A DNA stretch of 64,000 nucleotides from Deltaproteobacteria bacterium (GCA_947490345.1 CANLGL010000001.1:17399-81398), one strand, 5' to 3'; positions 3,947 through 54,324 are shown, numbered from the stretch's first letter. The notes: generated from the letters alone by a model not told the origin. Program-made: numbers and translations.

Positions 3947-3951
3947 GTCCC

Positions 3952-4452
3952 ATGCCCCAGGACGCGAGGGACCGCGCGGTCGCCTACGTGGAGCGACTGC
4001 ACGGTGCGGTCGACGAGCTCGTCGCGCCGATTGGTGCGAAGCTGAGCGCGCGACTGGTGTGCCGGAAGGGCTGCTCGGGCTGCTGCGCCGATGACCTCTC
4101 GATCTTCGAGGTCGAGGCGGAGCTGATCCAGCGTCGCCACCCCGAAGCACTTTTGGCTCCGCCGGCACCACCGGGGCGGTGCGCGATGCTCACGCCCGAC
4201 GGCGCCTGCCGAGTGTACTCGGCGCGCCCCTACGTCTGTCGGACGCAGGGCTACCCGCTCCGCTGGGCCGAAGATGAGGCTGAGAAGCGCGACATCTGCC
4301 CGCTGAACGACGACGGCTCCGACCTGACCGAGCTTCCCGAGGCGTTGTGCTGGACCCTGGGGCCTGTCGAGCGACGCCTGGCGTCGGCCCAGGCCCTGAT
4401 TGACGGCGGGGAGGGGCGGCGGGTCGCGATACGGGACTTGTTTGTGGGGTGA
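3952..4452 (+). CDS. YkgJ-family (CxxCxxCC) cysteine-cluster protein
   Basis: ATG at 3952 lies inside the longer track ORF 2989..4452. Motifs CRKGCSGCCADD and PDGACRVYSARPYVCRTQGYPL. Confidence 0.8.
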   Translation: MPQDARDRAVAYVERLHGAVDELVAPIGAKLSARLVCRKGCSGCCADDLSIFEVEAELIQRRHPEALLAPPAPPGRCAMLTPDGACRVYSARPYVCRTQGYPLRWAEDEAEKRDICPLNDDGSDLTELPEALCWTLGPVERRLASAQALIDGGEGRRVAIRDLFVG

Positions 4453-7561: not shown

Positions 7562-10500
7562 TGCAGCTCCGTGGCCACGTAGAGCGGCCAGTTCTCTTCG
7601 TCTTCGGGCAGGTGGCGGGCGTCGGCGACCATGATGCGAGGGTCGGTGAGCGCCAGGAGGTCCTGCGGCAGGATGCCCAAGGAGAGCGGCCGGCCAAAGG
7701 GGTCGGTGGCAGGGTGTTTTGCGAGTGTCGCCTGCCACAAACCCGCCATCGCCGCGGCGGTGAGGACCTCGCCTTCCGCCGCGTCGGCCTCCCACGCTCG
7801 CACCGCGACGCGCGCCTCCGCGTACAGGGGCCAGAACGCGGCCGCGAGGGGCGTTTCGACGTCCGGCGTCCCGTCCGCCCGAGTCGACACGGCATCCGCC
7901 CCAGGTTGGGCCGGCGGGAGTCCGGTGATGCGAAGAACGGTTGCCTGCAGCGCGTTGTCGCCCGCGATCTGCCCGGTCTGCAGGAGCTTGGCATCCAGGA
8001 ATCCGAACGCAGGGCTGTCGCTCGACGCCAGAACCGTGGTGTCGGCCCAGTCGGCCGCCCCCGGCAGCGGGGCCAGCGCGCGCATCGCGACGTCCACGCC
8101 GGCCAACGTGACGACGGCGGCGGTCGGTCCTGTGCGGCCGGTGGACTTCACCGTGATCGTGCCCTTTTCGCCCGGTTTCCAGGCCGTCTCTGCGGAGAGG
8201 GCCAGGTGCAGCTCCTCGGCCGGCCGCACGTACATCACCGCGCGGGCGCCCCCCCACTCCACGCTCGCGAACCCCGACACGCCCTCCGGGACGGTGAAGT
8301 GGCCGACGCGGGCCTCGGGATCGAAGGTGATCTTTTCCAGGAGGCGGTCGCCCTGCATCAGCCGCAGCTCCTTGGGCAGGGTGCCGGTGAAGCTCTTGCC
8401 ACGGACGGCGGTGAGCTCGATCTCGTCCTTGGGCGCGACCACCACCTCGGAGAAGCGAAGCCGCAGTGGCGGGACCTCGCCGATGGGCATGCGCAGGACC
8501 GTGTCGCCGACGCTCTGCACGTCCACCACGAAGGCAAAGCCGGGCCAGCTGGCCGGGCTGGTTCGGGAGGAGACGGAGCTGGCGCCGACCTGATTCGTGA
8601 TCAACACCACGCCGGCCGCCTCGACGTCGGTGGCGGCCACCCGGAGCCCCGCGAGTGCCCGCTGAACACAGCTGGCAGCCCCGGCCAGTTCGTCGAAGCC
8701 ATCGGCGTCCACCGCCTGAATCCGCACCGTGCTGGCCCCTGCCGCTACTTCCCAGACCCAGGCCTGGGGCAGCGCGCCGCCGACGAGCCCAGATGCGCAC
8801 TCCGGGTGGTCGGCGAGCGCGTCGTCCACCGCCACCTGCACGGCCCCCGCGTCGCCGAAGAAGGCGGACACCTCCGCTTCCAGCGAGGCGGCGCCCTGAT
8901 CGTCGAGCCCAAGCGTCACCGCCACGAGGCGCGGCCCGGAGCCGCGGATGCCCACGCCCGACGCCGCGCCCAGCAGGCACCGGTGCATTCCCGGGCTGAG
9001 CGCGGCTCCCCACAAGTCGCTCACGCCGCCGGCAGTCACCCGCAAGGTGAGCGCTGCAGAGGTCGAGCCTCGGCGCGCGCACGGCCGCCACGCGCGGGTA
9101 AGCCCATCCGCCAAGCCCTCCAGCGCCAGGTCGGCACCACCCGCCACGGCGTCGCTGAGCCCGGAGATCACCACCGGCTCGGGAGGCTTCGTGGGGCGGA
9201 CGGGAAGCGTCGGCTCCGTCACCGTGATCGCCGCGCCGGGATCGAGCTGAAAGCGAGCCACCCCATCGGCATCGGCGACGGCCTCCACACCAGGATCACG
9301 TTTGTCCCACTCCCGCCGCAAGGTCAGCCGCGCTCCTGGAACCGTGGCGCCCGCGGGCGTCGTCACCCGCAGGTACATTCGGTTGTTGGCGTCGGCGACC
9401 AGCCCGCCGCCGAGCTCCGTCACCGCTTCGACCGCGATCGAGTCCTCGCTCAGCAGCAGACTGGCGCTCGCCCCCGCCGTCTCGCCCGCCGCCTCGGTCA
9501 CCGCGGCCGACACCGCCACGGTCACGCGCCCGACCAGATCGTCCGGCACTTCGCCCAGGTCCAGCCGGAAGCGACCTTCGCGATCCGTCGTGAGCGCGAC
9601 CTCGGTCGGCCAGTCGTTGGGCGGCGGCCAGTCGCCGTCGGTGCGCAGCGTCAGCCGAACCGGTCCGTCCTGCACCGGCGCGCCGGAGGTGTAGCGGGCG
9701 ACCCCGTTGAGGCCCAGCCCGGAGGCCGGTCCGAACCACGCCCGGTCAGGAGTGAGCTCGACCGTGAAGCGCGGCAGCCGGAACTCCCGCACCTCGAAGC
9801 TCCGCCGGGTGTTCACGTCCCCGGACTGGAGCCCCACCGTCCAAACTCCGACGGGCGCATCGTCGGCGAGCGGGAACGTGAAGTCAGCGACCCCGGTGGC
9901 CCCGGTGTTGTCCTTTTCCTCGTACGCCAACTCCCCGCTGGGGTCGTAGACCTGCCAGCGGCCCGGTCGTTGGAGCGCGGGCGCCAACGAGCCCGCCTCC
10001 AGCAGCACAGCGCGCGCTTTCACGACCTGGCCGGGCCGGTATAGGGGCGCATCCGTCAGCAGGTGCTCCAGGGCCGGACGGAAAAGGGGCAGCGGTGCGT
10101 CGACGGTCATGCTGCCGCGGGGTCCCTCGGCCCGCGCGCGGAGGATGTAGTCGCCGTCGGGCAGCGCCTCGGGGAGCATGACCGACGCCTCCTGGACCCC
10201 GAGCTCGACCCAGTCCCAGCCACTGCCCCAGCGAGAGTGCAGCACCTCGATCGGGGTCTCGGCGCCTGCCGCATCGACGAGGGTGAGCGTGGGCGAGAAG
10301 CGCCGCAGTGGTTGGGTGTCGATGAGCTGGAGCTGGTCGCCGTAGAGCTGCGCCGATGCGCGCACGCGCACCGTGCCCTTGACTCCCCGCCCGACGCGGT
10401 CGGCTTCCACGGAGAGGCTGGCAATCGCGCCCGCGGGGCACTGGTAGACCACGATGCCGTCGCGCCACCACAAGCTCCAGCACGGACCCAAGACCCACCC

Positions 10501-10581: not shown

Positions 10582-10639
10582 CTTCTACCCGGCGCGTGCC
10601 GACATCAACGGCCCATCGCGGGTTCCGGTATCACGCAAC

Positions 10640-10747
10640 GGGGGAAGGAGGCGGGGCGCGGCCTCCCCCTACCGCGGCGTACCATCCGGCCTCCAAGCTG
10701 CGCTTTCCGGCCTGCGGTCCCGGGCGCGTTCGAATCACGCGTCGGGA
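10640..10747 (-). repeat. Composite REP-like structured intergenic element, copy a
   Basis: Contains the shared core TACCATCCGGCCTCCAAGCTGCGCTTTCCGGCC, flanked by a G-run/C-run hairpin and by hairpin GGCGCGT-tcgaatc-ACGCGTC. On the minus strand it reads GGTAGGGGG plus a hairpin. Confidence 0.7.
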
Positions 10748-10770
10748 TCGGAAGAATCACGCCGACGTCG

Positions 10771-12342
10771 TCACGCAGATTCGATTCCGAGCAGCTTGCC
10801 GAGGATCACGCGATCGCCCTGCAATGCCGTCCGCTGCATGTAGAACGCGAGGCCGCGCTCGCCACCGAGCTCCTCGCCACCACCGGCCCGGCCCGGGCCG
10901 CCATGGATGCAGCCGGGCAAGACCATCCCCGGTGCGATCACCTGATCGGCCACCTTCGACGAGGTCAACATCATCCGCCCGAGCCACGGCGCGCACTCGA
11001 GCATCATCGTGCCGAGCCAGGCGCGGTCGTCGCCGTAGACCGTCGACATCAGGCTGCCCTGGCCCCTCGCGAGCGCTGCGGAGCCGGCTTCGGCGCTGCC
11101 GTCGTAGGGCACCAGCGAGACCGAGGGGCCGAAGACCTCCAGGTCATGAACCGGGCCGGCCGCGGCGCTCGCCAGGCGAATCACGGTCGGCGCCACGAAG
11201 TAGCCCTTGCCTTCCGGGGCGTGCTTCCCATCGATGCGATCGGGCCCGCCGGTCACGACGCGCCCGTGTTCGGCTATCTGGCGGATGCCGCTCAGCACGT
11301 CGCGCAACTGCGAGGCCGTACTCACCGGTCCCATGCCGACCCCGTCCACCAGCGGGTCCCCGACGGTGATGGCGCTGAGCCCCTCGACGACCGACTCCTC
11401 GAACGCGGCGATGAGCGAGTCTGGGACCATCACGCGGCGGATCGCCGTGCACTTCTGGCCCGCCTTCTGGGTCATGTCGGTCACGACGTGGCGAACGGCG
11501 GTGTTCCACAGCTCCGAGCCGACTTCGACATCGGGGCCGAGCACAGCCGCGTTGAGCGAGTCGGCCTCGACGTTGACGCGCACGCCGCGCTCGGCGAAGC
11601 CCGGGGTGTTCCGCAACATCGCGCCGGTGGCGTTGCTGCCGGTGAACGCCAGCGAGTCCTGGGCGCCGAGCCGGGACAACAGGTCGCCGGTCGAGCCGCA
11701 GATGAGCTGGAACGCGCCCTCGGGGACGAGGCCGCTCTCGACCAGCAGCTCCGTCATCCGGTGGGTGAGCTGCGCGGTGGCCGTCGCCGGTTTGGTCACG
11801 ATGGGTGCCCCGGCGAGCCAGGCGACAGCGGCCTTTTCGAAGGTACCCCAGGCCGGGAAGTTGAACGCGTTGATGTGGACGGCGACGCCCTGCCGCGGCA
11901 GGAGCACATGCTGCCCGCCGAAGCGCGGCGCGCGAGTCAATTGTGCCAACTCCCCGTCGAGGAGCCACGGGCGATCGCCGATCCGCGTCGCAAGCACCTC
12001 ACCGAAGGCAGCGTAGGCCCCCAGCGTCCCGATGGCGCCATCCACGTCGAACTTGGCGTCCCCTCGGGTGCTCCCGCCGTTGATCTGGGCGAGGTCCAGA
12101 AGCTCCTCGCGGTGGGCGTGGAACAGCTTCTGCACACCCTTGATCATCGCCGCGCGCGCCGACCACGGCTGTTTCCGAAGCACCGCGCCGGCTTGGCGAG
12201 CGTGGGCGAGCACGGCGCCGTGGTCGATGCCTTCCGCCGAGGTCTCGGCGATCACGGCTTCGGTGGCGGGATTCACGAGCTGTGCGGGCTTGCCCGTGCC
12301 ATCGAACCAGGCACCCGCGACGTAGGACTTCAGGCGCACCAT
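10771..12342 (-). CDS. paaZ: 3,4-dehydroadipyl-CoA semialdehyde dehydrogenase-like protein (PaaZ aldehyde-dehydrogenase domain only, no MaoC hydratase domain)
   Basis: Long collinear matches to the PaaZ N-domain as I remember it: GVAVHINAFNFPAWG, KPATATAQLTH, VEADSLNAAVLG, TQKAGQKCTAIRRVMVP and HGGPGRAGGGEELGG. Confidence 0.85.
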   Translation of the reverse strand: MVRLKSYVAGAWFDGTGKPAQLVNPATEAVIAETSAEGIDHGAVLAHARQAGAVLRKQPWSARAAMIKGVQKLFHAHREELLDLAQINGGSTRGDAKFDVDGAIGTLGAYAAFGEVLATRIGDRPWLLDGELAQLTRAPRFGGQHVLLPRQGVAVHINAFNFPAWGTFEKAAVAWLAGAPIVTKPATATAQLTHRMTELLVESGLVPEGAFQLICGSTGDLLSRLGAQDSLAFTGSNATGAMLRNTPGFAERGVRVNVEADSLNAAVLGPDVEVGSELWNTAVRHVVTDMTQKAGQKCTAIRRVMVPDSLIAAFEESVVEGLSAITVGDPLVDGVGMGPVSTASQLRDVLSGIRQIAEHGRVVTGGPDRIDGKHAPEGKGYFVAPTVIRLASAAAGPVHDLEVFGPSVSLVPYDGSAEAGSAALARGQGSLMSTVYGDDRAWLGTMMLECAPWLGRMMLTSSKVADQVIAPGMVLPGCIHGGPGRAGGGEELGGERGLAFYMQRTALQGDRVILGKLLGIESA

Positions 12343-13414: not shown

Positions 13415-16459
<3,045 letters not shown>

Positions 16460-30419: not shown

Positions 30420-31256
30420 TCACCGCCGGCCGCGAAACGGCGCCCAACCCGGCAACCGAACCAGCTCGCCAGGCGCGAGGGGCCCGAAGCGGGCGTCGCC
30501 GACGACGCGGACCGCAGCGGCCAGCGCCGGGTCCCGGATGGGCGCGCTTCTGGCCGGGGTGGCGGCCGCGATGCGGCGGACTTGCGACGGCGACAATTCC
30601 AGGATGTCGGCCAACGCCCGGGTGCCGAGCCCGCCGGGCTCCAGGCAGCGATGCGCAGCAGCGGTCTTCACCACCAGCGGCCGTACGGACCGCGTACCGA
30701 CGATGGTGCGGGTCACCGCGCTCACGGCGTCGCGAATCGCGAGGAAGTCGAAAGATTGATATTGGATTTCGGGCAGAGGCGTGCCGGCCGGCTCGACGGT
30801 GGGGTCGCCTGACACGTACGCGTGAAACCGCTCCGCGTTGGCCACCTTCATCCGCCCCGGCGCGGCCGAGAGTCCTACGAAGTCCCGGTGCGTCGACAGC
30901 GGCCAGGACAGGGGATCCGCGACGAGGTGTTTCCGGCAGGGGTTCAAGTGCACGTATCGAATGTTTCGGTCCTCCTTGTCGGGCGTGACGCGCTCGGGCC
31001 GGGGCGCCCCCTCCCACACCGTGACACCGGGCGTCGCGCGCCGGAGATTTCGGTAGCGGGCGTAGCCGCTCATCACGCCGCCGAGTCGCCGTTGGCCCTC
31101 CGCGTGGGGCAAGAGCAGGTGCAGGTGATCGGGCATCACACAGCAGGCGATCATCTCCGGGAACGCGGCGCGGACCATCTCGTAGAGGCGCAGGCCCTCC
31201 TCCCAGGTGCGGAAGAGCAGGCTGTTTCGCTCGGCGCGTGCGACATAGTGAAACAT
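30420..31256 (-). CDS. IS200/IS605-type HUH Y1 transposase homolog (RayT-like) with a C-terminal helix-turn-helix extension
   Basis: HUH motif in CVMPDHLHLLLPH. Tyr motif in IRYVHLNPCRKHLVADP. The C-terminal ~110 aa include an HTH-like TRALADILELSPSQVRRIAAA. Confidence 0.75.
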   Translation of the reverse strand: MFHYVARAERNSLLFRTWEEGLRLYEMVRAAFPEMIACCVMPDHLHLLLPHAEGQRRLGGVMSGYARYRNLRRATPGVTVWEGAPRPERVTPDKEDRNIRYVHLNPCRKHLVADPLSWPLSTHRDFVGLSAAPGRMKVANAERFHAYVSGDPTVEPAGTPLPEIQYQSFDFLAIRDAVSAVTRTIVGTRSVRPLVVKTAAAHRCLEPGGLGTRALADILELSPSQVRRIAAATPARSAPIRDPALAAAVRVVGDARFGPLAPGELVRLPGWAPFRGRR

Positions 31257-31415
31257 GCTGGTGCGGCAGGCAAGCCGCGTGCCAACGAGCGAAGCTACGT
31301 TTCTGGCGTCAGGGGTGACGGAGGTCCGTCGCTCCCTGACGGAGGTCCGACACCAGGACCACGAGCCCCACCCCGAACTGGCTCGCGACGCCCCCCGGCC
31401 ACCGGGAGGGGGAAC

Positions 31416-41596: not shown

Positions 41597-42325
41597 ATGA
41601 TCCGTTTCCTGCTTCCTGCCATCCTCCTCGCCGGCTGCGCGCCCAGCGGCATCTTCATGATCACGGTCCCCTACGCCGAAGGCTCGCTCGACTGCGCTGA
41701 GAGCCTCGACGAGAACTTCAGCGACGGGTACGAGCCCGACGGTGGCGGCGGCGGCAACGACCCGTGGACCTACGACAGCACCTTCGTCGGTGCTGACGCG
41801 ATCATTTTCTTCCACATCTCCCCGACCGGCGATGGTGCGGTGCTCACCTGGGGCAACGCCCCCTACCCCGGCGTTGCCGAGGGCGACGGCTGGACCTTCA
41901 GTTGGACCACGCACAGCGAGTCCGAGGAGCTGTCCGAACATGAGGACGGCTACGAGTACAACGAGTACAGCGTCAGCGATTCCACCGTTGACATCCACAT
42001 CGGGCAGGCGCTCTTCGCCGAGCTCGGCGGCACGGTGTCGGGCACCAGCAAGTCCGAGACAACCTGGGAAGAGAACGACGAGTGGGACATGGACGAGATC
42101 GGTTTTGGTAGCGGCCAGATTCCGTCGTCGACCTACCTGGTCTACAAGGACAGCGGCGACCTGTACCCCCAAGGCAACGACAGCGAAGAAGACGAGTGTG
42201 ACGACAAGCTCTGCTTCATCACCAAGACCGAAGAGTGCACCCAGTCGGCACAGGCGTTCAACGCCACCAAGGTCGAGGGGAACGACGTCCTGATGTACAA
42301 CGACAGCTACGACGACAGCCAGTAG
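41597..42325 (+). CDS. Acidic hypothetical lipoprotein
   Basis: ATG at 41597 with lipobox in MIRFLLPAILLAGC. Asp/Glu-rich with no recognised domain. Confidence 0.65.
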   Translation: MIRFLLPAILLAGCAPSGIFMITVPYAEGSLDCAESLDENFSDGYEPDGGGGGNDPWTYDSTFVGADAIIFFHISPTGDGAVLTWGNAPYPGVAEGDGWTFSWTTHSESEELSEHEDGYEYNEYSVSDSTVDIHIGQALFAELGGTVSGTSKSETTWEENDEWDMDEIGFGSGQIPSSTYLVYKDSGDLYPQGNDSEEDECDDKLCFITKTEECTQSAQAFNATKVEGNDVLMYNDSYDDSQ

Positions 42326-42345
42326 CGTCGCCTCAGGGCGGCGCC

Positions 42346-42369
42346 CGCCGTCCTCCGGAGGGGACGGCG
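42346..42369 (+). terminator. GC-rich hairpin downstream of the lipoprotein gene (no U-tract)
   Basis: CGCCGTCC-tccggagg-GGACGGCG lies 21 nt after the stop codon. Confidence 0.3.
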
Positions 42370-42423
42370 CGGTAGGGGGGAACCGCGAAGCGGTGCCCCC
42401 CCTCTCACAAGGAAGCGGTGCCC
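42367..42423 (+). repeat. Short REP-like element, copy e1
   Basis: GCGCGGTAGGGGGGAACCGC-gaa-GCGGTGCCCCCCCTCTCACAAGGAAGCGGTGCCC. GTAG is followed by a 12-bp stem with one mismatch. Confidence 0.7.
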
Positions 42424-42889
42424 GCGGTCAAGCACCGGCGTGGAGGAGGCGGCTGGAGAAGATGTGCTTGCCCGGCAGCGCGTGGCCGCGATCCGCCGCG
42501 CCGAGGCGCGGCGGGCCGAACCGCTTCGGAGCGCCGAGGCGGTGCCGACGGCGCTGCTCGCGGCGATCCTCGCGCGCCTGGAGATGGTGCCCCCGGCCGC
42601 CGGCGGCGCGCCCGCGTGGCTCGTCGAGGCGATCGGGAACCCGCTCACCTTCTTCTATGAGGCGGCCGTTGGTGTCAAGGTGAGAGTCGTTCTTTTTCCT
42701 CGGTGTTGAGCTGGGCGCGCGGGGGCTGGGGCCCTGCGCTGGTTGCCGTTCGCCCCGGTTGCCGGTCTTTGTCGTGGGGGCCTCCACGGTCGCCGTTGGC
42801 GGTCGCCGGGTGCGGTGCTGGCAACCCGCCTTGGCGGACGCTGTTCTTCTTCGGCGCCTTCTTCGACGAGGTCGTCCCGTTGCCCACGC

Positions 42890-43378
42890 TGTCGACGACG
42901 CCGGACTGGTCGCGTCGCGGGACCAGTCCCAGGTAGGCCGCAGCGGTTCGGCCGTCGGGAAAGCGTGGCGGGTCCTCGATCGTCAAGACGAAGGCGAGCG
43001 CCGTGACGGGGCCGACGCCGCGCACCTGGCGCACGATACGCCCCTCCGGGAACTGGGTCTCCAGCATGGCCTCAAGTTGGGCGTCGTCCCGACTGCGAAG
43101 CACGGTGAGGCCGAGCTCGCGGGCCTCGGAGCGGTGCTCGATCGGGTGCAGAAGCGTCGCGTCTGCGCAGGCCAGCTTCGCCGGGTGACCCAGCCCGACT
43201 GCGCCCCGGCCTCCATCGCGACCTTCGCAAAGCCTTTTCCTTCAAAAGCCTCTCGGACTCCCTCGGGGGTCATCGAGAATTCGAACCAGCCCACCACCAC
43301 CCCTGGCGTGTAGATGCAGGCCACGGAAGTGCGGTCCCCGAGATCGACGCCGACGGTGCAGGTGCGATGATCGTTCAT
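42890..43378 (-). pseudogene. Decayed IS110-family transposase (frameshifted, internally deleted, C-terminally truncated)
   Basis: The N-terminal piece is MNDHRTCTVGVDLGDRTSVACIY...KVAMEAGAQSGW. After a frame change near 43195, the Transposase_20-like piece is VRGVGPVTALAFVLTIEDPPRFPDGRTAAAYLGLVPRRDQSG. About 100 aa of the catalytic domain and the C-terminal ~70 aa are missing. Confidence 0.7.
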
Positions 43379-45342: not shown

Positions 45343-45433
45343 CGCGGGCCGGAGACTCGGTGCGGGGGCCACGGCCCCGCCTGGCGGATAGATGGGATGA
45401 GGCGGCCGGTGCTCCACGCGGAGCACATGGACG

Positions 45434-45492
45434 CCGCGGCAGGGGGGAACCGCGAAGCGGTGCCCCCCCTCCCACAAGGAAGCGGTGCCCCC
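45434..45492 (+). repeat. Short REP-like element, copy e2
   Basis: GCCGCGGCAGGGGGGAACCGC-gaa-GCGGTGCCCCCCCTCCCACAAGGAAGCGGTGCCCCC, nearly identical to 42367-42423. Confidence 0.7.
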
Positions 45493-45494
45493 TC

Positions 45495-46403
45495 TCAGAG
45501 AATCGTCTTGCCTAGTGCGCTCATCAACAGCCACACGGCAAGGCGGCCCGTGCGGTTTTCGCTGTCGATGACTGGGTTGAGCTCGACCATCTCGAGCCCG
45601 AGCACCTTCCCAGTGGCGGCCACTTTCTCGCAGATCAGGTGGGACTCGCGCAGGCTGAGCCCGCCTGGCACCGCCGTACCCACGCCCGGTGCGTGTTGGG
45701 GGTCGACGCCGTCGAGGTCGAAAGACAGGTGGATGCCGACCGTGCCGTCGGTGCAGCGGTCGATGGCCTCGCGCACGCAGAGGGCGGTGCCGCGCTCGTC
45801 CAGCTCGCTCATGGTGTAGACACGCAGCCCGACCTCGCGGACAAAAGCGCGCTCGCCGGCGTCGACGTCTCGGGCGCCGACCACACAGACGTTGCGGCCG
45901 TCGAGCGCCGGCCGGTCTCCGGCGAGCGCGACCAGCTCAGGAGGCCCGTGACCCAAGAGCACGGCAAGCGGCATGCCGTGGATGTTGCCGGTCGGGGACG
46001 AGTCGGGGGTGTTCACGTCGGTGTGCGCGTCGACCCACAACACGCCGATTCGCTTGCCGCGCTTCCGCCAGTAGCGCGCCATCCCGCTGATGGTGCCGAT
46101 CGCCACCGAGTGGTCGCCCCCCAGCACCACCGGCAGGTGCCCGGCTTCGAGTGCGGCTTCCACCCGATCGGCCAGCTGGGTACACACGCGGGTGATCTCG
46201 GTGAGATAGCGCGCGTGCTCGTCGCCAGACTCGATCATCTCCTGGGTGCGCACGCCGAGCGCGAATGTCTCGGCAACCTCGATTCCAAGCGACTGTACCC
46301 CCGGCTTGAGCCCGGCCAGGTGGATGGCGGAGGGACCCATGTCGACCCCGCGTCGGCCGGCGCCGAGGTCCATGTGCACGTTGCCGATGACGATCGAGCG
46401 CAT
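45495..46403 (-). CDS. rocF: Arginase
   Basis: Collinear with the RocF-type arginase sequence as I remember it: MDLGAGRRGVDMGPSAI, VVLGGDHSVAIGT, WVDAHTDVNTP, GNIHGMPLAV, SFDLDGVDP and GLSLRESH. Confidence 0.9.
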   Translation of the reverse strand: MRSIVIGNVHMDLGAGRRGVDMGPSAIHLAGLKPGVQSLGIEVAETFALGVRTQEMIESGDEHARYLTEITRVCTQLADRVEAALEAGHLPVVLGGDHSVAIGTISGMARYWRKRGKRIGVLWVDAHTDVNTPDSSPTGNIHGMPLAVLLGHGPPELVALAGDRPALDGRNVCVVGARDVDAGERAFVREVGLRVYTMSELDERGTALCVREAIDRCTDGTVGIHLSFDLDGVDPQHAPGVGTAVPGGLSLRESHLICEKVAATGKVLGLEMVELNPVIDSENRTGRLAVWLLMSALGKTIL

Positions 46404-48775: not shown

Positions 48776-49264
48776 TCACCCCAGCTTGCCGCCCAACGCC
48801 TGCCAAGCGGCCACGCCGCCCTCGAGGCTCGTGGCGTTGAACAGGCCCTTGGAACGCAAGAGCCTCGCCGCGGTCACACTCCGCATGCCGTGTGCGCAAT
48901 AGCAAACGATTTCATTGCATTTTTCCACCTCGCGCCACCGGGCCTCCAGCTGGCCGAGAGGGATCACGCGCGCGCCGGCGATGATGCCGTGGGTGGTCTC
49001 GTGGGGTTCACGAACGTCGAGCAGCACCACAGGCTCGCCGGCCTCGACCCGCTCCTTGATCTCCTGGGCGCCCGCTTCGAGGTTGGCAAGGGCATCCGCG
49101 TCCGCAACGGGCCCTTCCTCACCGGCGGTGACCGCTACCGGACCGCGACCGGCAGGGGCGGGGGGGCGAGGAGGTGTCGGGGTTGAGGCGGGCGAGACGG
49201 CGGCCGGTGGGGCGCCGCCGATCCTGGACACCACGCTCTTGGCGAACGATCGCAGCAGTCCCAT
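48776..49264 (-). CDS. Rhodanese-domain protein with a Pro-rich N-terminal extension
   Basis: ATG at 49264. Active-site loop IVCYCAHGMRS, with LLDVREPHE upstream. Confidence 0.8.
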   Translation of the reverse strand: MGLLRSFAKSVVSRIGGAPPAAVSPASTPTPPRPPAPAGRGPVAVTAGEEGPVADADALANLEAGAQEIKERVEAGEPVVLLDVREPHETTHGIIAGARVIPLGQLEARWREVEKCNEIVCYCAHGMRSVTAARLLRSKGLFNATSLEGGVAAWQALGGKLG

Positions 49265-49314
49265 CGGGCCTCCTCCTCGCCGCGGCATGCGGCAAGGAGG
49301 GCTATCATGCAACA

Positions 49315-49454
49315 GGGGAAGGGGCCTGCGGCACCTTCCCCTACCGCCGTCTACCCTCCGGCCTCCAAGCTGCGCTTTCCGGCCCACGGCAGCGGGCGGG
49401 TTGAATAACCCGCCCGCCGGGCGACTCTCCCCATCCCGCCCAGCCGCAGAGCGG
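49315..49454 (-). repeat. Composite REP-like structured intergenic element, copy b
   Basis: GGGGAAGG...CCTTCCCC hairpin, core CTACCGCCGTCTACCCTCCGGCCTCCAAGCTGCGCTTTCCGGCC, hairpin GCGGGCGGGTT-gaat-AACCCGCCCGC and tail CTCCCCATCCCGCCCAGCCGCAGAGCGG. Confidence 0.75.
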
Positions 49455-49551
49455 CCTACAGGGCCTGCCGTGTGCCGCTCGCCAGTTTCATGGGGCTGGC
49501 GTCGCGAGACGGCGCGCCCCCGCGGGCGGAACTGCGATAGGCGCTTCCGCC

Positions 49552-50082
49552 GTGAAGCTCTCTCAGCTCCTCACCCTGGCCAGCGCCCTGTCCGCGCTCC
49601 GGCTCGTGCTCGCAGGAGTCCTGCCGCTGTTTCCGCCTGAGTTTTGGGTAGCGGTGTACGCCGTCGCGATCCTGACTGACGTCCTGGACGGGCCGGTCGC
49701 CCGGCGGACCGGGGTCGCCTGTCCGGCGGGAGCTACCCTGGACGCCTGGGCCGACAAGGCGCTGCACGTCAACACCGCGTGGGCGCTGGTGCTCGGCGAC
49801 GTGGTCCCGTCGTGGTGGCTGCTCCTTTGGTTCATCCGGGAGATCATCCAACTGCCGATGGTCTTCATCTTCGCCCACCGGTGGCGGACCGGCGTCGGCA
49901 TGCCGGCAACCCGACCGCTCGGTCAGGCCACATCGATCTCGCTGGCGGCGACGATCGCGCTCGCCCTCGTCGGGATTCCGTCATTGTGGGCCACTGTGCT
50001 CGTCGGTGCGCTCGGCCTTGCTGCGGGAATGGATTACGCGCGGCTACACTTCTCCACACTCCGCCTGGTCGAGGTCCCATGA
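49552..50082 (+). CDS. CDP-alcohol phosphatidyltransferase family protein (small, 176 aa)
   Basis: GTG start. Family motif D-x2-DG-x2-AR...G-x3-D-x3-D in TDVLDGPVARRTGVACPAGATLDAWADK. Hydrophobic helices. Confidence 0.8.
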   Translation: MKLSQLLTLASALSALRLVLAGVLPLFPPEFWVAVYAVAILTDVLDGPVARRTGVACPAGATLDAWADKALHVNTAWALVLGDVVPSWWLLLWFIREIIQLPMVFIFAHRWRTGVGMPATRPLGQATSISLAATIALALVGIPSLWATVLVGALGLAAGMDYARLHFSTLRLVEVP

Positions 50083-52013
50083 AACTCCTTCCCCTTGTGC
50101 TGCTGCTCGGTTGCACCGGCGCCGCCGTCGTGGACGACACCACCGACCACTTCCCGGACGACGAGGACGCCGACGGGTACACTGCCGAAGAGGGGGATTG
50201 CGACGACAACGATCGTGCGGTGAACCCCGGCGCCGCGGAGGTCTGGTACGACGGCTTCGATCAGAACTGTGACGGCGCCGACGACGATGACCAGGATGGC
50301 GATGGCAGCAAGCTAAGTCGCGACTGTGATGACACGGAGCCGGAAGTGCGTCCTGGCGCCGACGAACTGTGTGACGGCATCGACAACGATTGCGATGACC
50401 AGATCGATGACAACCCGGTTGACGGCGTGCCGGCCTATGGCGATAGCGACCTCGATGGCTGGGCGGCAGACAATGCCAACGAGATCCAGGTCTGCGACGC
50501 GGCGGCGCCGGGCCTGGCGACCCAGACCGGCGACTGCGATGATCGTGACGCCGACGTCGCTCCGGACGCTCTCGAGCTGTGCAACGGTGAAGACGACGAC
50601 TGCGACGACGCCATCGACGAGGACGCCGTGGATCCCGACCAGTGGTGGATCGACGCCGATGGCGATGGGTTTGGTGTCGGGACCGAGTGGGTAGTCGGCT
50701 GTACCCAGCCGTTGGGCTACGCATCCTCGTCCGAGGATTGTGACGACGCCCGCGCGGATGCCAACCCCGACGCAATCGAGCTGTGCGACCTCGTCGACAA
50801 CAACTGCGATGGCACCGTGGACAACGACGCTTTCGATGCCACCACCGTCTACACCGACGCCGACCTGGACGGCTTCGGCGTCGATGGCACCGAGGCGACG
50901 GCGTGCGCGTTCAGCGGCGCAGCGGTGGGCGGGGACTGTGACGACGCCAACGCCTCGACGTACCCCGCCGCGGCCGAGCTCTGTGACGAGCTCGACAATG
51001 ACTGCGACACCGAGGTCGACGAGGATGCCTTTCCGGTCGATTATTACGTCGATGGCGATGGGGACGGCTTCGGCGCGGGCTCCTTGGTGGGGACCGATTG
51101 CATCATCCCCGCCGGTCACGCCACCAACGATGCCGACTGCGACGACGGGGACGCCGCCGTCTCGCCCGTGGCGATCGAGATGTGCGACGGCATCGACAAT
51201 GACTGTGTCGGTGACCCCGACGACGGCGCCGTGGACGCATCCACCTGGTACCTCGACGAAGATGCGGACGGCTTCGGACTCGACGATGACAGCGTCAGCG
51301 GCTGTGCCGCGGCGGGCGACCACAGCGCGATCGTGGGGGGTGACTGTGACGACTCGGACGACGCGGCTTACCCGGGAGCGGCGGAGCTCGACGATCTCCT
51401 CGACCAGGACTGCGATGACCTGGCGGACGAGGACTTCGTGGTTGCCGGCGACCTGGTCATCAGCGAGATCGCTCGGCAGACCTGGATGGGCGGTGCCTCG
51501 ACCGACACCGGCGGGCAGTGGTTTGAGGTCTACAATGCCTCGGCTCGCGACGTGGTACTCTCGAACTGGGTGATCGCGCGAACCAGCGCGGTCGGCACCG
51601 ACAGCTTCCTCGTCGAGGACACGGCGCCGACGCTGGCCGCAGGCGAACTTTTCGTCTTCTGCGCCAGCGACGTCTTCACCATCGACAACGACGCCAACAG
51701 CCTGTTGGCTTGCGACTACGTCTGGACGGATTCCGGGTACCCCGACACCTACGAGGGCACCTACCGGGACAACACCTTCCACCTCCAGCGCGACGCCGAT
51801 GGGCTCTCCCTCGCCCTCGACGGGCGCACGGTCGACGATGTGACCTGGGACGCGACCTGGCCCGCGGGCGCCACCCAGTCCATGACCCTGGACGGGGCGG
51901 CCCTGGACGCCACCAGCAACGACGACTCCCTCAACTGGGACATGGAGTTCGACTACGACTGGTGGAACGACGGCGCGAGCAGCCCTGAATACGGGACGCC
52001 CGGCACGTTCTGA
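50079..52013 (+). CDS. Lipoprotein with MopE-like Cys/Asp repeats and a C-terminal lamin-tail (LTD) domain
   Basis: ATG at 50079 overlaps the preceding stop (ATGA). Lipobox in MKLLPLVLLLGC. Repeats CDGIDNDCDDQIDD, CNGEDDDCDDAIDE, CDLVDNNCDGTVDN and CDELDNDCDTEVDE. The C-terminal LVISEIARQ...QWFEVYNASARDVVLSNWVIA is LTD-like. Confidence 0.8.
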   Translation: MKLLPLVLLLGCTGAAVVDDTTDHFPDDEDADGYTAEEGDCDDNDRAVNPGAAEVWYDGFDQNCDGADDDDQDGDGSKLSRDCDDTEPEVRPGADELCDGIDNDCDDQIDDNPVDGVPAYGDSDLDGWAADNANEIQVCDAAAPGLATQTGDCDDRDADVAPDALELCNGEDDDCDDAIDEDAVDPDQWWIDADGDGFGVGTEWVVGCTQPLGYASSSEDCDDARADANPDAIELCDLVDNNCDGTVDNDAFDATTVYTDADLDGFGVDGTEATACAFSGAAVGGDCDDANASTYPAAAELCDELDNDCDTEVDEDAFPVDYYVDGDGDGFGAGSLVGTDCIIPAGHATNDADCDDGDAAVSPVAIEMCDGIDNDCVGDPDDGAVDASTWYLDEDADGFGLDDDSVSGCAAAGDHSAIVGGDCDDSDDAAYPGAAELDDLLDQDCDDLADEDFVVAGDLVISEIARQTWMGGASTDTGGQWFEVYNASARDVVLSNWVIARTSAVGTDSFLVEDTAPTLAAGELFVFCASDVFTIDNDANSLLACDYVWTDSGYPDTYEGTYRDNTFHLQRDADGLSLALDGRTVDDVTWDATWPAGATQSMTLDGAALDATSNDDSLNWDMEFDYDWWNDGASSPEYGTPGTF

Positions 52014-52070
52014 TCAGTTCCCCATGCCGCCCGCAGGTCGGCTCCCGGAGCCATGAAACGCCGAGGCGGC

Positions 52071-52208
52071 GTGGGGGACTGCGGTGAGGGGGAGAGCGCC
52101 ACGCGCGGCGCGTTATCCAACGCGTCGGGCGCCGGAGGCCGGAAAGCGAAGCTTGAAGGCCGGAGGGTATGGCGCGGTAGGGGGAGAGGCCGGCGAGGCC
52201 TTTCCCCC
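52071..52208 (+). repeat. Composite REP-like structured intergenic element, copy d (opposite orientation to a-c)
   Basis: GGCCGGAAAGCGAAGCTTGAAGGCCGGAGGGTATGGCGCGGTAGGGGGAGAGGCC-ggcga-GGCCTTTCCCCC, preceded by the hairpin CGCGTT-atcc-AACGCG. Confidence 0.75.
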
Positions 52209-52222
52209 GAAAAATGATCGAG

Positions 52223-52711
52223 CTACTCGAAGTAGTAGCGGACCCCGACATCGGCGCGCGGCTGCAGGTAGCAGAAGAGCTGTACCGAGGTCGCGCAGTA
52301 GTCCAGTGGATAGCCGCCGAGGCCCACGTCGACGAAGGCGTCCAGCGGCGCGTCGTGAAATTTCAGATCGACGCCGAGACCGGCGCCAAAACCAACCTTC
52401 CCACTCGCGAAGCCGGGAAAAAGCCACACGCCGGCGTCCACGCCCGCCAACCAGTACATGTCGAAGCGGCCGAAGTCGGTGTCCCGAACCGTGAACAGGT
52501 CCATCTCGAAGTTGGCGCGGAACTGCTGGAGCAGACCCCCGTTGCCGAGGTAGGCCGACACGCCTAGATTGGGCTTGAACCAGAACTTACCCGCCGCCCC
52601 GATGAAACCGTTCCCGGAGGAGGCGCCGAGACCCAACTTCCGGACGGTTCCGACCTCGGTCGTAGCGTGGGCGCTGTCGACGAAAAGGGTGAGCGCGAGC
52701 GTGATCAGCAT
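52223..52711 (-). CDS. Small outer-membrane beta-barrel protein
   Basis: Signal MLITLALTLFVDSAHA. Alternating Gly/aromatic beta-strand pattern. The C-terminus is ...DVGVRYYFE. Confidence 0.7.
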   Translation of the reverse strand: MLITLALTLFVDSAHATTEVGTVRKLGLGASSGNGFIGAAGKFWFKPNLGVSAYLGNGGLLQQFRANFEMDLFTVRDTDFGRFDMYWLAGVDAGVWLFPGFASGKVGFGAGLGVDLKFHDAPLDAFVDVGLGGYPLDYCATSVQLFCYLQPRADVGVRYYFE

Positions 52712-52815
52712 GAGGACTCCGGCGCGCCCCTGATAGCCGGTTGGGCGGGCGGCGACACTTGCGTGGGTGTCAACGCCGGTTAGATGGCCGGGCCTTTCCC
52801 AATCACGAGGATCCA

Positions 52816-53268
52816 ATGAAGAAATTCGCACTCATCGCCGCCGCGCTTCTCGCTGCCGGTTGTTCCTACAAGAACCACAGCGCTCCCGGCTTTGGCGCCC
52901 AGTTCGCCAGTGTCGACTACACCGTCCTGGGCGAAACCAGCGCGGAAGCGTGCGGCACCTACGTGTTCGGCATCGACTTCGGCCACCTGTTCTCGGACAA
53001 GTCGGGCGGTACCAAGGGCGGTGGCGGCGGCGACCCCATCAGCATGATTCTGGCGATGTTGGGCGGCAACCCGGAAGAAAGCCGGGCGCTCTACGAAGCG
53101 CTCGACAAGATGCCCGAGGCCACCAACCTCGCGGCCCATCGCACGCACATGACCTACGACGGGCTCACCATGGGCAAGTCCACCACCGTGCTGTTCGGTC
53201 GCAGCTGCGCAACTGTGGTCGCACACGGCGTGAAGATGGGCAAGGGCCCGGTCCCGAACGCGCACTGA
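52816..53268 (+). CDS. Hypothetical lipoprotein (150 aa)
   Basis: ATG at 52816 with lipobox in MKKFALIAAALLAAGC. Contains a Gly-rich loop GGTKGGGGGD. Confidence 0.7.
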   Translation: MKKFALIAAALLAAGCSYKNHSAPGFGAQFASVDYTVLGETSAEACGTYVFGIDFGHLFSDKSGGTKGGGGGDPISMILAMLGGNPEESRALYEALDKMPEATNLAAHRTHMTYDGLTMGKSTTVLFGRSCATVVAHGVKMGKGPVPNAH

Positions 53269-53276
53269 TCCTGAGA

Positions 53277-53448
53277 GGGGGAAGGGGCGGCGCCCCTTCC
53301 CCTAGCGCGCCATACCCTCCGGCCTCCAAGCTTCGCTTTCCGGCCTCCGGCGCGCCGCGCGTTCATAACGCGCGACGACGCGGCGCTCACCCCATCCCGC
53401 CCAGCCGCAGAGCGGAGCGCAGCTGCGGTTTCCGGCCTCCGGCGCCCG
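53277..53448 (-). repeat. Composite REP-like structured intergenic element, copy c, plus a partial second core
   Basis: GGGGAAGGGGC-g-GCCCCTTCCCC, core CTAGCGCGCCATACCCTCCGGCCTCCAAGCTTCGCTTTCCGGCC, hairpin GCGCGTT-cat-AACGCGC and tail CTCACCCCATCCCGCCCAGCCGCAGAGCGG. A partial repeat GCAGCTGCGGTTTCCGGCCTCCGGCG follows. Confidence 0.75.
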
Positions 53449-54324
53449 CTAGAGCAGCTCCTGCAAGAGCGAGGTGGCGTAAATGCCCGGGCCGAGCGTC
53501 ACATCGAGCCAGTAGCCTTCTGGAACGGGGCGGATCGCGGCGTCGATCGCGTGGGCCACCAGTGCCCGCCGCTGTCCCGGCACGATGTGGGCAACCCGAT
53601 CGAGGTGATCGAGAGAGATTCCCGACTCGGCCAGCACCCCTTCCTCCAAGGCCAGGGCGGCCCCGCGGGGCCATCTCATCCGCGCTCCAAATAGCGGCCC
53701 GGTCGCGACACCATGCTCCATCAGGTCTCCCCCGAGGCTGCGCCCGCCGCGCGCGTCGAGCACCCGGTTGAAACCGGCCGCCTGCCAGGCGATGAGGGCG
53801 AAGCGCCGGCGTTGGGGGTCCAAGCGCTCGGATTGGCCGAGGAGAACCTCGTGACCCAATTCCGGAAGGCCGTTGGCCACCCGTTGGGGTCCGAAACGAT
53901 TGGGGAAGCGTGCGAGCTCGACGATGCGACGTGCCGCGATCGTGGCGTCTCCATCGCGCACGAGAATCGAGAAGCGGTTCCCGTCAAGGTCGCCCGGACG
54001 CAGCGGCGCGCGGGTCTCTCCTTGGGCGACCAGCTCCAACCCGGGCGGCATCGAGCGGATGCCGCGAGGTCCGGCGAGCGTGAAGCGCTGCTCGGTGGTC
54101 GCGTCGCGGTCCTTCAGGCCCGCGTAGCCGACGTCTTCGGTTTCGACGCCGGCAGCGCGAGCCAGGGCGCGCGCGACCTCCGGGGTGTCGCGCCCTGAGC
54201 GACGCACACGATACCACCGGACGCCGCGGCCCTTCGGGCACCCGAATGGCAGCTCGCTCACGCGGAAGTCGTCGTTGGAAACTTTGTAGCGGCCGCCGGT
54301 GCCCGGCGGTTGGTCAGTGGGCAT
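53449..54324 (-). CDS. truD: tRNA pseudouridine(13) synthase TruD
   Basis: Catalytic GxKD block VGYAGLKDRDATTEQ, plus GNRFSILVRD, FPNRFGPQR and YATSLLQELL, collinear with E. coli TruD as I remember it. The ATG at 54324 overlaps the upstream gene end by 11 nt. Confidence 0.85.
   Translation of the reverse strand: MPTDQPPGTGGRYKVSNDDFRVSELPFGCPKGRGVRWYRVRRSGRDTPEVARALARAAGVETEDVGYAGLKDRDATTEQRFTLAGPRGIRSMPPGLELVAQGETRAPLRPGDLDGNRFSILVRDGDATIAARRIVELARFPNRFGPQRVANGLPELGHEVLLGQSERLDPQRRRFALIAWQAAGFNRVLDARGGRSLGGDLMEHGVATGPLFGARMRWPRGAALALEEGVLAESGISLDHLDRVAHIVPGQRRALVAHAIDAAIRPVPEGYWLDVTLGPGIYATSLLQELL

Follow-up and report, generated by a model that had tools for sequence, protein, structure and literature searches.

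What kind of sequence occupies the intergenic spacer at positions 53267-53448 of a 64,000-nucleotide (nt) stretch of DNA from Deltaproteobacteria bacterium (GCA_947490345.1, CANLGL010000001.1:17399-81398; this whole stretch is called the window below), and what is selected in it? A first-pass annotation had described it as one of four copies of a structured repeat with a common core and had suggested that compensatory changes in its helices reflect selection on a folded single strand. The repeat itself was confirmed, since the window contains four occurrences of the 27-nt core CCGGCCTCCAAGCTKCGCTTTCCGGCC, three on the plus strand (10686, 49358 and 53319) and one on the minus strand (52137), where dinucleotide-preserving shuffles predicted 0.00 matches by chance. 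We found that three helices of this repeat, here named P1, P2 and P4, are kept by compensatory change between sub-families, and that the repeat is almost certainly mobile.

The four copies align over approximately 140 nt with a mean column identity of 70%, and their lengths range from 146 to 230 nt, a complete unit having about 200-230 nt. The bounds given by the first-pass annotation were too short, and full-length units include an additional tail hairpin. The extents are approximately as follows, with scores from the covariance model described below; the strand given here and in later lists is the folding strand of the element, recognised by its GTAG.

10625-10770, minus strand: copy 1, without tail hairpin (74 bits)
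49302-49531, minus strand: copy 2 (126 bits)
52014-52222, plus strand: copy 3, full-length, with tail hairpin, three-way junction and P1 (139.9 bits); the syntenic spacer of relative L053 has 6 nt
53267-53448, minus strand: copy 4 (119 bits), absent from the matching spacer in relatives L053, L051 and L052

Anatomy of the repeat

Read on the strand carrying CTAC, the repeat begins with CTATCA-N-GAAAC, the G-run/C-run hairpin P1, TACCG, the 5' arm of P2 and T(A/T)CCCTCC, continues with the core P3 (GGCC-TCC-AAGC-TNC-GCTT-TCC-GGCC) and TGCGG, and ends with the distal hairpin P4 (10-12 bp), the 3' arm of P2, TCTCCCC and a 'tail'. On the opposite, GTAG strand, a full unit follows a flank ending in (G-rich)WTAG and starts with the long tail hairpin, GGGGGAGAG and the three-way junction, whereafter GGTAG, the G/C hairpin P1 and GTTTCTTGATAG complete it. 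In copy 4 these parts are found at the following positions.

53277-53303, minus strand: P1, GGGGGAAGGGGC-GGC-GCCCCTTCCCCT, the G-run/C-run hairpin, preceded by GCTAG on the folding strand
53307-53386, minus strand: three-way junction, P2 GCGCC (53307-53311) / GGCGC (53382-53386) around P3 and P4
53321-53345, minus strand: P3, GGCC-TCC-AAGC-TTC-GCTT-TCC-GGCC, on the folding strand GGCC-GGA-AAGC-GAA-GCTT-GGA-GGCC, which includes GCGAAGC
53356-53374, minus strand: P4, CGCGCGTT-CAT-AACGCGCG, the distal hairpin
53387-53447, minus strand: variant tail, with block CCCCATCCCGCCCAGCCGCAGAGCGG and a second, incomplete version of the core's 3' half (53420-53447)

The tail differed between copies. In full-length copies it is a hairpin of 12 bp with 3 covarying pairs, whose arms are for example AGTCACCCATGGCGC/GCGCCATGGGTGACT or AGTTCCCCATGCCGC/GCGGCATGGGGAACT. 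A variant tail with block CCGCCCAGCCGCAGAGCGG was observed in some copies, window copies 2 and 4 among them, and the block CCCCATCCCGCCCAGCCGCAGAGCGG of copy 4 is common to copy 2 and to loci L011, L014 and L021. Having full, variant or missing tails, the copies form a mosaic family. Tail hairpin and P1, both tagged by GTAG, stand in direct orientation.

Compensatory changes in the helices

We aligned 36 copies from the window, eight metagenome-assembled genome (MAG) assemblies and metagenome contigs with the aid of a model. Pairing was found in 92.0% of cells as compared to 78.0% in shuffles, 24 of the 38 pairs had changed on both sides, and the covariation score was 0.325 as compared to 0.112 in shuffles; none of 500 shuffles reached the observed pairing, two-sided changes or covariation score. 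When the partners were slid by 1-3 columns, pairing fell to 43-56%. Two-sided changes affected 8/12 pairs of P1 and 9/12 pairs of P4, demonstrating that the G-run/C-run hairpin and the distal hairpin proposed earlier are real and covary. P3 was 97.9% paired in both its stems; being nearly unvarying it is uninformative on pairing, though it is clearly constrained in sequence.

The third helix of the first-pass annotation, a stem enclosing the core alone, did not hold: in 21 copies, 58.5% of its cells were paired with a single covarying pair, and we dropped it in favour of a long-range pairing. In this pairing, P2, the same 5' segment pairs with a segment 3' of the distal hairpin, and in the same 21 copies 92.1% of cells were paired and 5/6 pairs had changed on both sides, the pair types including GCACCA/TGGTGC, GCGGTG/CACCGC, GGGCCA/TGGCCC and GCGACA/TGTCGC. 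P2 encloses the core and the distal hairpin together, thus forming a three-way junction. Overall, the earlier proposal that compensatory change reflects selection on a folded single strand was strongly supported.

The folding strand and the core hairpin

Non-Watson-Crick stem cells, read on the CTAC strand, comprised 53 A.C and 23 G.T, and since 18 of the A.C cells belong to one inherited P1 position, the ratio without them was 35:23. The tail hairpin, when its GTAG strand was read, had 12 G.U as compared to 2 A.C. Since an A.C corresponds to a G.T wobble on the opposite strand, it is the GTAG strand that tolerates these changes, and the wobble asymmetry points to this (GGTAG) strand as the folding one. 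Predicted energies were lower on the GTAG strand in 33 of 36 copies with RNA parameters and in 34 of 36 with DNA parameters; this comparison was discounted because a G-rich strand folds better for compositional reasons, and the folding z-scores of the four window copies did not separate the strands.

On the GTAG strand P3 reads GGCC-GGA-AAGC-GNA-GCTT-GGA-GGCC with the loop GCGNAGC, in which N takes all four bases (17, 9, 5 and 2 copies). GCGNAGC has been described as an extraordinarily stable mini-hairpin motif of DNA (PMC13037366), which, if relevant here, would suggest single-stranded DNA rather than RNA.

Filled and empty sites

The rhodanese protein encoded beside copy 2 is identical in several assemblies of the same strain, and their contigs break inside copy 2, as expected of a multi-copy repeat. 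Through rhodanese homologues we reached three syntenic relatives, L053 (GCA_009692585.1, SHYX01000002.1; 83-89% nucleotide identity, syntenic to 32-60 kb of the window), L051 (SXOM01000414.1) and L052 (BJHF01000003.1). L053 is without copies 4, 3 and 2, having 37, 1 and 15 unaligned nt as compared to 205, 204 and 261 nt in the window, and L051 and L052 have short spacers with empty sites and no copy in 41 kb. In turn, the spacer separating the rhodanese gene from its next neighbour, only 23 nt long in the window, contains a copy in L053 (10516-10712). These filled and empty sites leave little doubt that the repeat is mobile.

The pair formed by the window and L053 also defined the ends of the element. 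With ^ marking the junction, the empty site reads CGGGGATAG^GGCGGACGGATG on the GTAG strand (with longer left flank, ...CCGACGGGGATAG^GGCGGACGGATG) and the filled site of the L053 copy reads GGGGATAG^TCACC...CCGTGATAG^CCCGGACGGATG (in longer form, ...CCGAGGGGATAG^TCACCTGAGCC...(element)...CCCCGCCCCGTGATAG^CCCGGACGGATG). The left end of copy 4 lies directly after the truD stop (CTCTAG^), that of copy 3 after TGA-TCAG^, where the empty site is TGA-ACAG, and in a tandem pair in L002 one CTAC is common to both units. The left-flank consensus was GGG-W-T-A-G^T(T/C)NCCCAT, with G at position -1 in 17/17 copies; the element inserts 3' of (G-rich)WTAG, which often is a stop codon or lies a few nt upstream of a start codon. 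The right end of the element, (T)G(A/T)TAG, carries WTAG again. Terminal inverted repeats were not found, as the ends are 5'-TCACCCATG...GTTTCTTGATAG-3' and only TCA/TGA are able to pair. The tail hairpin begins at +1 of the left end, and 12 nt separate the end of P1 from the right end. Within one copy, the left and right junctions resembled each other no more than junctions of different copies did (permutation P=0.27-0.63), which mildly favours the absence of a target duplication. Neither a recurrent neighbour gene family nor an HUH/Y1 open reading frame (ORF) was found at 40 loci carrying or matching the element, indicating that it is non-autonomous.

Distribution of the family

When one genome per species was scanned with a 21-base version of the core, 26 loci were obtained, 25 of which carry the same element, in eight freshwater MAG assemblies. 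With L053, found after the 36-copy set had been assembled, the element is present in at least nine related freshwater MAGs. NCBI titles of the eight assemblies are 'Myxococcales bacterium', 'Deltaproteobacteria bacterium' and 'uncultured proteobacterium', and two of them are evidently mislabelled 'Klebsiella pneumoniae'; the host clade as a whole is uncultured and Myxococcota-like, with titles of Myxococcales, Deltaproteobacteria or Myxococcota. An Arthrobacter locus (L013) and two asnB loci (L034 and L035) were rejected as chance matches to the core word. A covariance model, a check proposed in the first-pass annotation, was built from 21 copies and recovered 32 copies scored as strong (65 bits or more) in the window and the core-scan loci. 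One MAG, CAMBIK01, held 10 exact-core loci plus 3 further model matches within 8-kb flanks, and a metagenome scan contributed a few more copies. The model also matched two weak relatives in the window, over 42271-42416 and 45390-45483.

42355-42440, minus strand: degenerate relative 1, P1-variant hairpin GGGGGGGCACCGC-TTC-GCGGTTCCCCCC followed by TACCGCG and an unrelated hairpin (27.5 bits)
45431-45505, minus strand: degenerate relative 2, with the same P1 variant (20.6 bits)

Viral contigs gave 0 matches to the element and plasmids were without blastn or tblastn match, and we rejected a phage or plasmid origin. Rfam gave no match at gathering threshold in the window (49200-53700 yielded only noise, E >= 0.1), and we likewise rejected a known RNA family.

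The near-invariance of the core, claimed earlier for all copies, stood for the sub-family that had been selected by this core; it did not extend to a sister sub-family in L053, in which P1, P2 and P4 are kept and P3 is replaced. This sub-family is represented by two tandem copies (13967-14101 and 14172-14293) downstream of an arginase gene, with P3 being GGCC-GTACGCGAGCGTCC-GGCC. We also observed the inner core (UCC-AAGC-UNC-GCUU-UCC) inside other outer stems in two metagenome contigs, L032 (around 560-660) and L039 (around 3900-3990); the outer stem is ACC/GGU where the contig is AT-rich and GUCUCC/GGAGAC where it is GC-rich, and the contexts are unrelated. Given these contexts and the missing Rfam match, the inner core hairpin may be a wider motif.

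A RayT-like gene in the window

The first-pass annotation had connected the repeat with a protein encoded at 30420-31256, which it took to be of RayT type, and this assignment was corroborated.

30420-31256, minus strand: RayT-like HUH/Y1 transposase gene, 278 amino acids (aa), with HUH motif MPDHLHLL, Tyr motif RYVHLNPCRKHLV and a C-terminal extension of about 150 aa
30204-30409, no strand assigned: 3'-flank array of this gene, four 24-nt units GCGCGCATTTTGGGGGGCATAGTC, two plus two inverted, unrelated in sequence to the composite element

The protein matched NCBIfam REP_Tyr_transpos with E=2e-9 and 37.5 bits, below the curated cutoff of 80, and had no Pfam match, Y1_Tnp included. Its sole PDB match was E. 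coli TnpA-REP (4ER8), with HUH and Tyr motifs aligned, and a profile of 30 homologues, in which H44, H46 and Y101 are invariant, matched 4ER8 (E=6.6e-7) better than it did ISDra2 and other IS200-type transposases. Among the 207 homologues, which measure about 270-280 aa, some are named RayT (JGI) or 'transposase [Myxococcota bacterium]' (NCBI). Judged from its sequence, the protein is a divergent RayT-like HUH/Y1 transposase.

The array of two plus two inverted units of approximately 24 nt was present 3' of the gene in 6/6 genomes, one half (..ATCCCCCCC-GAAT..) being conserved and the other half genome-specific; besides the window it was located at 7300-7500 in L047, at 10860-11080 in L049 and in the 3' flanks of L058 and L061. 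The structure is REPIN-like (REPINs being paired repetitive extragenic palindromes, REPs) and unique to the RayT-like locus within the 64 kb. Upstream, a sigma-54-type box (TGGCAY-N5-TTGC) was observed in 5/6 of the RayT-like genes, as TGGCAC-GCGGC-TTGC in region 31257-31300 (minus) of the window and also in L049 (around 9960-9990), L058, L059 and L061, with only a partial match in L047, and further upstream there are repeated GACGGAnGTC motifs. These motifs suggest regulated expression of a vertically kept, single-copy transposase-like gene.

Position relative to genes

The earlier remark that the copies occupy tandem, divergent and convergent spacers was correct: the spacer at 10.6 kb is tandem, that at 49.3 kb divergent, and those at 52.1 and 53.3 kb are convergent. 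Copy 1 begins directly after the TGA stop of an aldehyde dehydrogenase gene (10771-10773) and is about 45-60 nt upstream of a gene for an MG2-domain protein. Copy 2 separates two divergent genes, those for rhodanese (start 49264, minus) and for a CDP-alcohol phosphatidyltransferase (start 49552, plus), copy 3 lies between the TGA stop of a MopE/lamin-tail domain (LTD) gene (52011-52013) and the TAG stop of a convergent gene (52223-52225), and copy 4 occupies the entire convergent spacer from the stop of a 175-aa gene (53266-53268) to that of truD (53449-53451). The products encoded around the copies, namely the MG2-domain protein, aldehyde dehydrogenase, rhodanese, MopE/LTD protein and TruD, are functionally unrelated.

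Using a crude gene call based on G+C at third codon positions, we found 22 P1-side genes directed away from the element as compared to 7 directed towards it (binomial two-sided p ~0.008), the former thus being co-directional with the folding strand, while the orientation on the tail side was unbiased (11:12). A start codon often lies within 5-15 nt of the P1 end, and a stop codon often adjoins the tail end, so that many elements fill the whole spacer; the G-run of the target may serve the downstream gene as its ribosome-binding site. A terminator scan called none of the window copies on either strand, in agreement with the earlier remark that they are not simply terminators, and we rejected a plain terminator. 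In many copies of other MAGs, GUUUCUUG follows P1 on the folding strand and is terminator-like, and the place taken by copy 4 in the truD spacer of the window is occupied in the relatives by an ordinary hairpin terminator. Sigma-70, sigma-54 or integration host factor motifs at the P1 end were partial matches by eye only, and an attC-like R' box (GTTRRRY) fitted only a few TTAG-type ends; both candidates were rejected.

Possible mechanisms of spread

We lean slightly towards the view that the repeat is a non-autonomous element resembling REPs and bacterial interspersed mosaic elements (BIMEs), which transposes as single-stranded DNA by an HUH/Y1-type reaction, with the helices as recognition features and the core as a sequence-specific site; taken separately, the Y1-type mechanism comes close to an even chance without reaching it. 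The element would move via an IS200/IS605- or RayT-type reaction reading hairpins plus a short tag, and such recognition would explain why P1, P2, P4 and the tail have conserved their pairing and not their sequence. The invariant core would be a sequence-specific protein-binding site, and the RayT-like protein of 30420-31256 would be the likeliest enzyme. After insertion, the element would be co-transcribed with its neighbours and may have effects similar to those of E. coli REPs, such as taking the place of the terminator hairpin in the truD spacer. The link between enzyme and substrate is drawn from the shared genome, the GTAG-hairpin layout and the Y1-like insertion signature, and that this particular protein mobilises the repeat seems possible, if rather doubtful. 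An extended version, which we find unlikely, is a mobile 'plug-in' cassette whose core hairpin, set in a three-way junction, docks a sigma-54-regulated, vertically inherited RayT-like protein, giving a new architecture outside the described groups of REP-associated tyrosine transposases (RAYTs). The C-terminal extension of the protein would then be DNA-binding and the core hairpin its docking site; a host-controlled enzyme would spread the cassette to WTAG sites at gene boundaries, where it would swap out terminators, part ribosome-binding sites from start codons and rewire expression.

Several observations weigh against transposition as single-stranded DNA by such an enzyme. A rayt gene lying between two inverted copies of its cognate REP is the defining feature of these systems (PMC2817692); as the units flanking the RayT-like gene, on its 3' side only and in all six genomes, differ from the composite element, this feature is lacking for the element. 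No composite copy lies within 10 kb of the RayT-like gene in the window or at five distinct-genome homologue loci, and the loci of six RayT homologues (about 87 kb, partly redundant), all from genomes other than the element-bearing MAGs, are without the element. No autonomous element with the same ends was found at the 40 element-bearing or matching loci. WTAG at both ends could be a DDE-type target duplication or a Y1-type target plus element end. Concerning the strand, part of the wobble counts is inherited and not independent, the energy advantage of the GTAG strand is confounded by its G-richness, and a replication-strand bias was not seen (15:22 by local GC skew).

Could the fold instead be primarily a functional RNA, a cis-acting element of 5' or 3' untranslated regions, a terminator or stabiliser or a small RNA that mobility merely spreads? 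The constraint would then come from a transcript that binds a host factor or controls the downstream gene. This has a low but appreciable probability in our opinion, being favoured by the 22 of 29 P1-side genes co-directional with the folding strand, by P1 ends near start codons, by GUUUCUUG in many MAG copies, by copy 4 standing in for a terminator hairpin, by three GGA and two GGAGG motifs in the core on the folding strand, and by the recurrence of the inner hairpin in other outer stems of unrelated contigs. However, the neighbour genes are functionally unrelated, copies are present in convergent spacers too, 0/4 window copies pass the terminator scan, there is neither an Rfam family match nor a conserved promoter, the orientation bias can arise from insertion 3' of a sense-strand WTAG, and the stability motif GCGNAGC is DNA-specific. 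A miniature element of another enzyme class, either DDE with a 4-5-bp WTAG duplication or an IS110-type (DEDD, bridge-RNA) recombinase sharing a short core with its target, would account for WTAG at both junctions, for TGAG at both ends of L016 and for TGATCAG/TGATCGAG in w52. That IS110 elements are without inverted repeats and aim at REP-like sequences is established knowledge (see PMC11208160 and PMC8450116), and a decayed IS110-family transposase fragment adjoins a degenerate relative at 42.4-43.4 kb. We nevertheless consider this origin improbable, since the missing terminal inverted repeats speak against a DDE element, the left and right junctions correlate no more than in permutations, the target flanks share only about 7 nt, far short of a bridge-RNA target, and the IS110 fragment is single, degenerate and not beside any full copy. 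Finally, a small protein could be read on the reverse strand, from GGAGCC-ATG-AAACG to TGATAG stops, as the tail has a Shine-Dalgarno-like GGAG followed by ATG, the P1 end a double stop (TGA, TAG), and some copies an open frame of about 55-60 codons. The frame through the invariant core varies between copies (0 or 2) and several have in-frame stops at codons 11-27, which refute this ORF; loop-length indels and compensatory stem changes are incompatible with coding as well, leaving it practically no chance.

Comparison with known repeats

IS200/IS605 elements and their ORF-less derivatives, the palindrome-associated transposable elements, resemble the repeat in lacking terminal inverted repeats, inserting 3' of a specific short sequence, having hairpins just inside both ends and one active, folding strand, and ending about 12 nt past the last hairpin. 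In contrast to IS200/IS605, the 40 loci yielded no autonomous relative that shares the ends and encodes tnpA or tnpB, replication-strand bias was not detected, and the internal three-way junction seems to have no counterpart there. To our knowledge, nearly all characterised REP/RAYT systems are from Gamma- and other Proteobacteria, and the way in which REPs move has still not been demonstrated. Our literature searches gave no REP/RAYT description for myxobacteria, and the large REP survey PMC3733652 makes no mention of them.

The proposal of a REP-like layout was right in part. GGTAG lies directly 5' of P1 in three of the four full window copies (GCTAG in copy 4) and in one degenerate relative, conservation of the CTAC columns reaches at least 90% over 21 copies, and WTAG likewise precedes the tail hairpin; the repeat is, however, not a simple REP or REPIN. 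As in the REP, BIME and REPIN systems of E. coli, Pseudomonas and Stenotrophomonas (PMC2817692; PMC3733652; PMC3479197), the element is extragenic and multi-copy, has a GT(A/G)G head directly 5' of a G+C-rich imperfect palindrome, preserves its palindromes by complementary mutations, is built as a modular mosaic with tandem arrays, often fills the spacer from a stop codon to the next gene, shares its genome with a RayT-like HUH/Y1 gene and has IS110-family elements beside repeats. It differs from REPs, which have 20-40 nt or form inverted doublets, by its 146-230 nt, four to five helices, three-way junction and near-invariant internal hairpin, and from REPINs by the direct, not inverted, orientation of its two GTAG-type hairpins, tail and P1. 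Its density is 4 full and 2 degenerate copies in 64 kb, REPs numbering tens to hundreds per genome. Unlike in RAYT systems, the RayT-like gene is flanked by other repeats and on the 3' side only, and the protein departs from known RAYTs by its divergence (below the NCBIfam cutoff, without Pfam match) and its C-terminal extension. The miniature elements ERIC, Correia/NEMIS and RIME (PMC3184786) are similarly 100-250 nt long, intergenic and co-transcribed, with long hairpins and sub-families, whereas the present element has no terminal inverted repeats, a strict WTAG target and a structure kept by covariation and not by sequence. REP/RAYT and miniature elements are thus known kinds, and this one is a larger, more complex REP/BIME-like element, which departs from described REPs and REPINs in its size, three-way junction, invariant GCGNAGC hairpin and direct tagged hairpins.

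In this family the filled and empty sites are clean, the WTAG target and the folding strand are defined, and there is a candidate enzyme. As its modular build separates helices in which only pairing counts from one sequence-invariant hairpin, recognition and cleavage are directly testable with oligonucleotides. The repeat breaks metagenome assemblies of this lineage, for which it may serve as a practical marker, and it reshapes intergenic regions by replacing a terminator and by splitting Shine-Dalgarno-like G-runs from start codons.

Other features of the window

The segment 42441-45430 (about 3 kb) is absent from syntenic L053 and has at each of its two borders a copy of the short P1-variant repeat, both in the same orientation. 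It contains the decayed IS110-family transposase (42678-43103, minus; Pfam Transposase_20, E=2.9e-12), upstream of which an ORF starting MNDHRTCTVGVDLGDRTS... has no Pfam match. Between copies 3 and 4 are two small divergent genes (52226-52831, minus, and 52741-53265, plus), which are without Pfam or NCBIfam match and are nevertheless conserved and syntenic in L051, L052 and L053. Large paralogous genes, at 13800-16200 and 49779-52013, encode many putative metal-binding MopE-type repeats (Pfam Cu-binding_MopE, 7 stretches) and a lamin-tail domain, and their internal repeats cross-match at 65-70% between loci.

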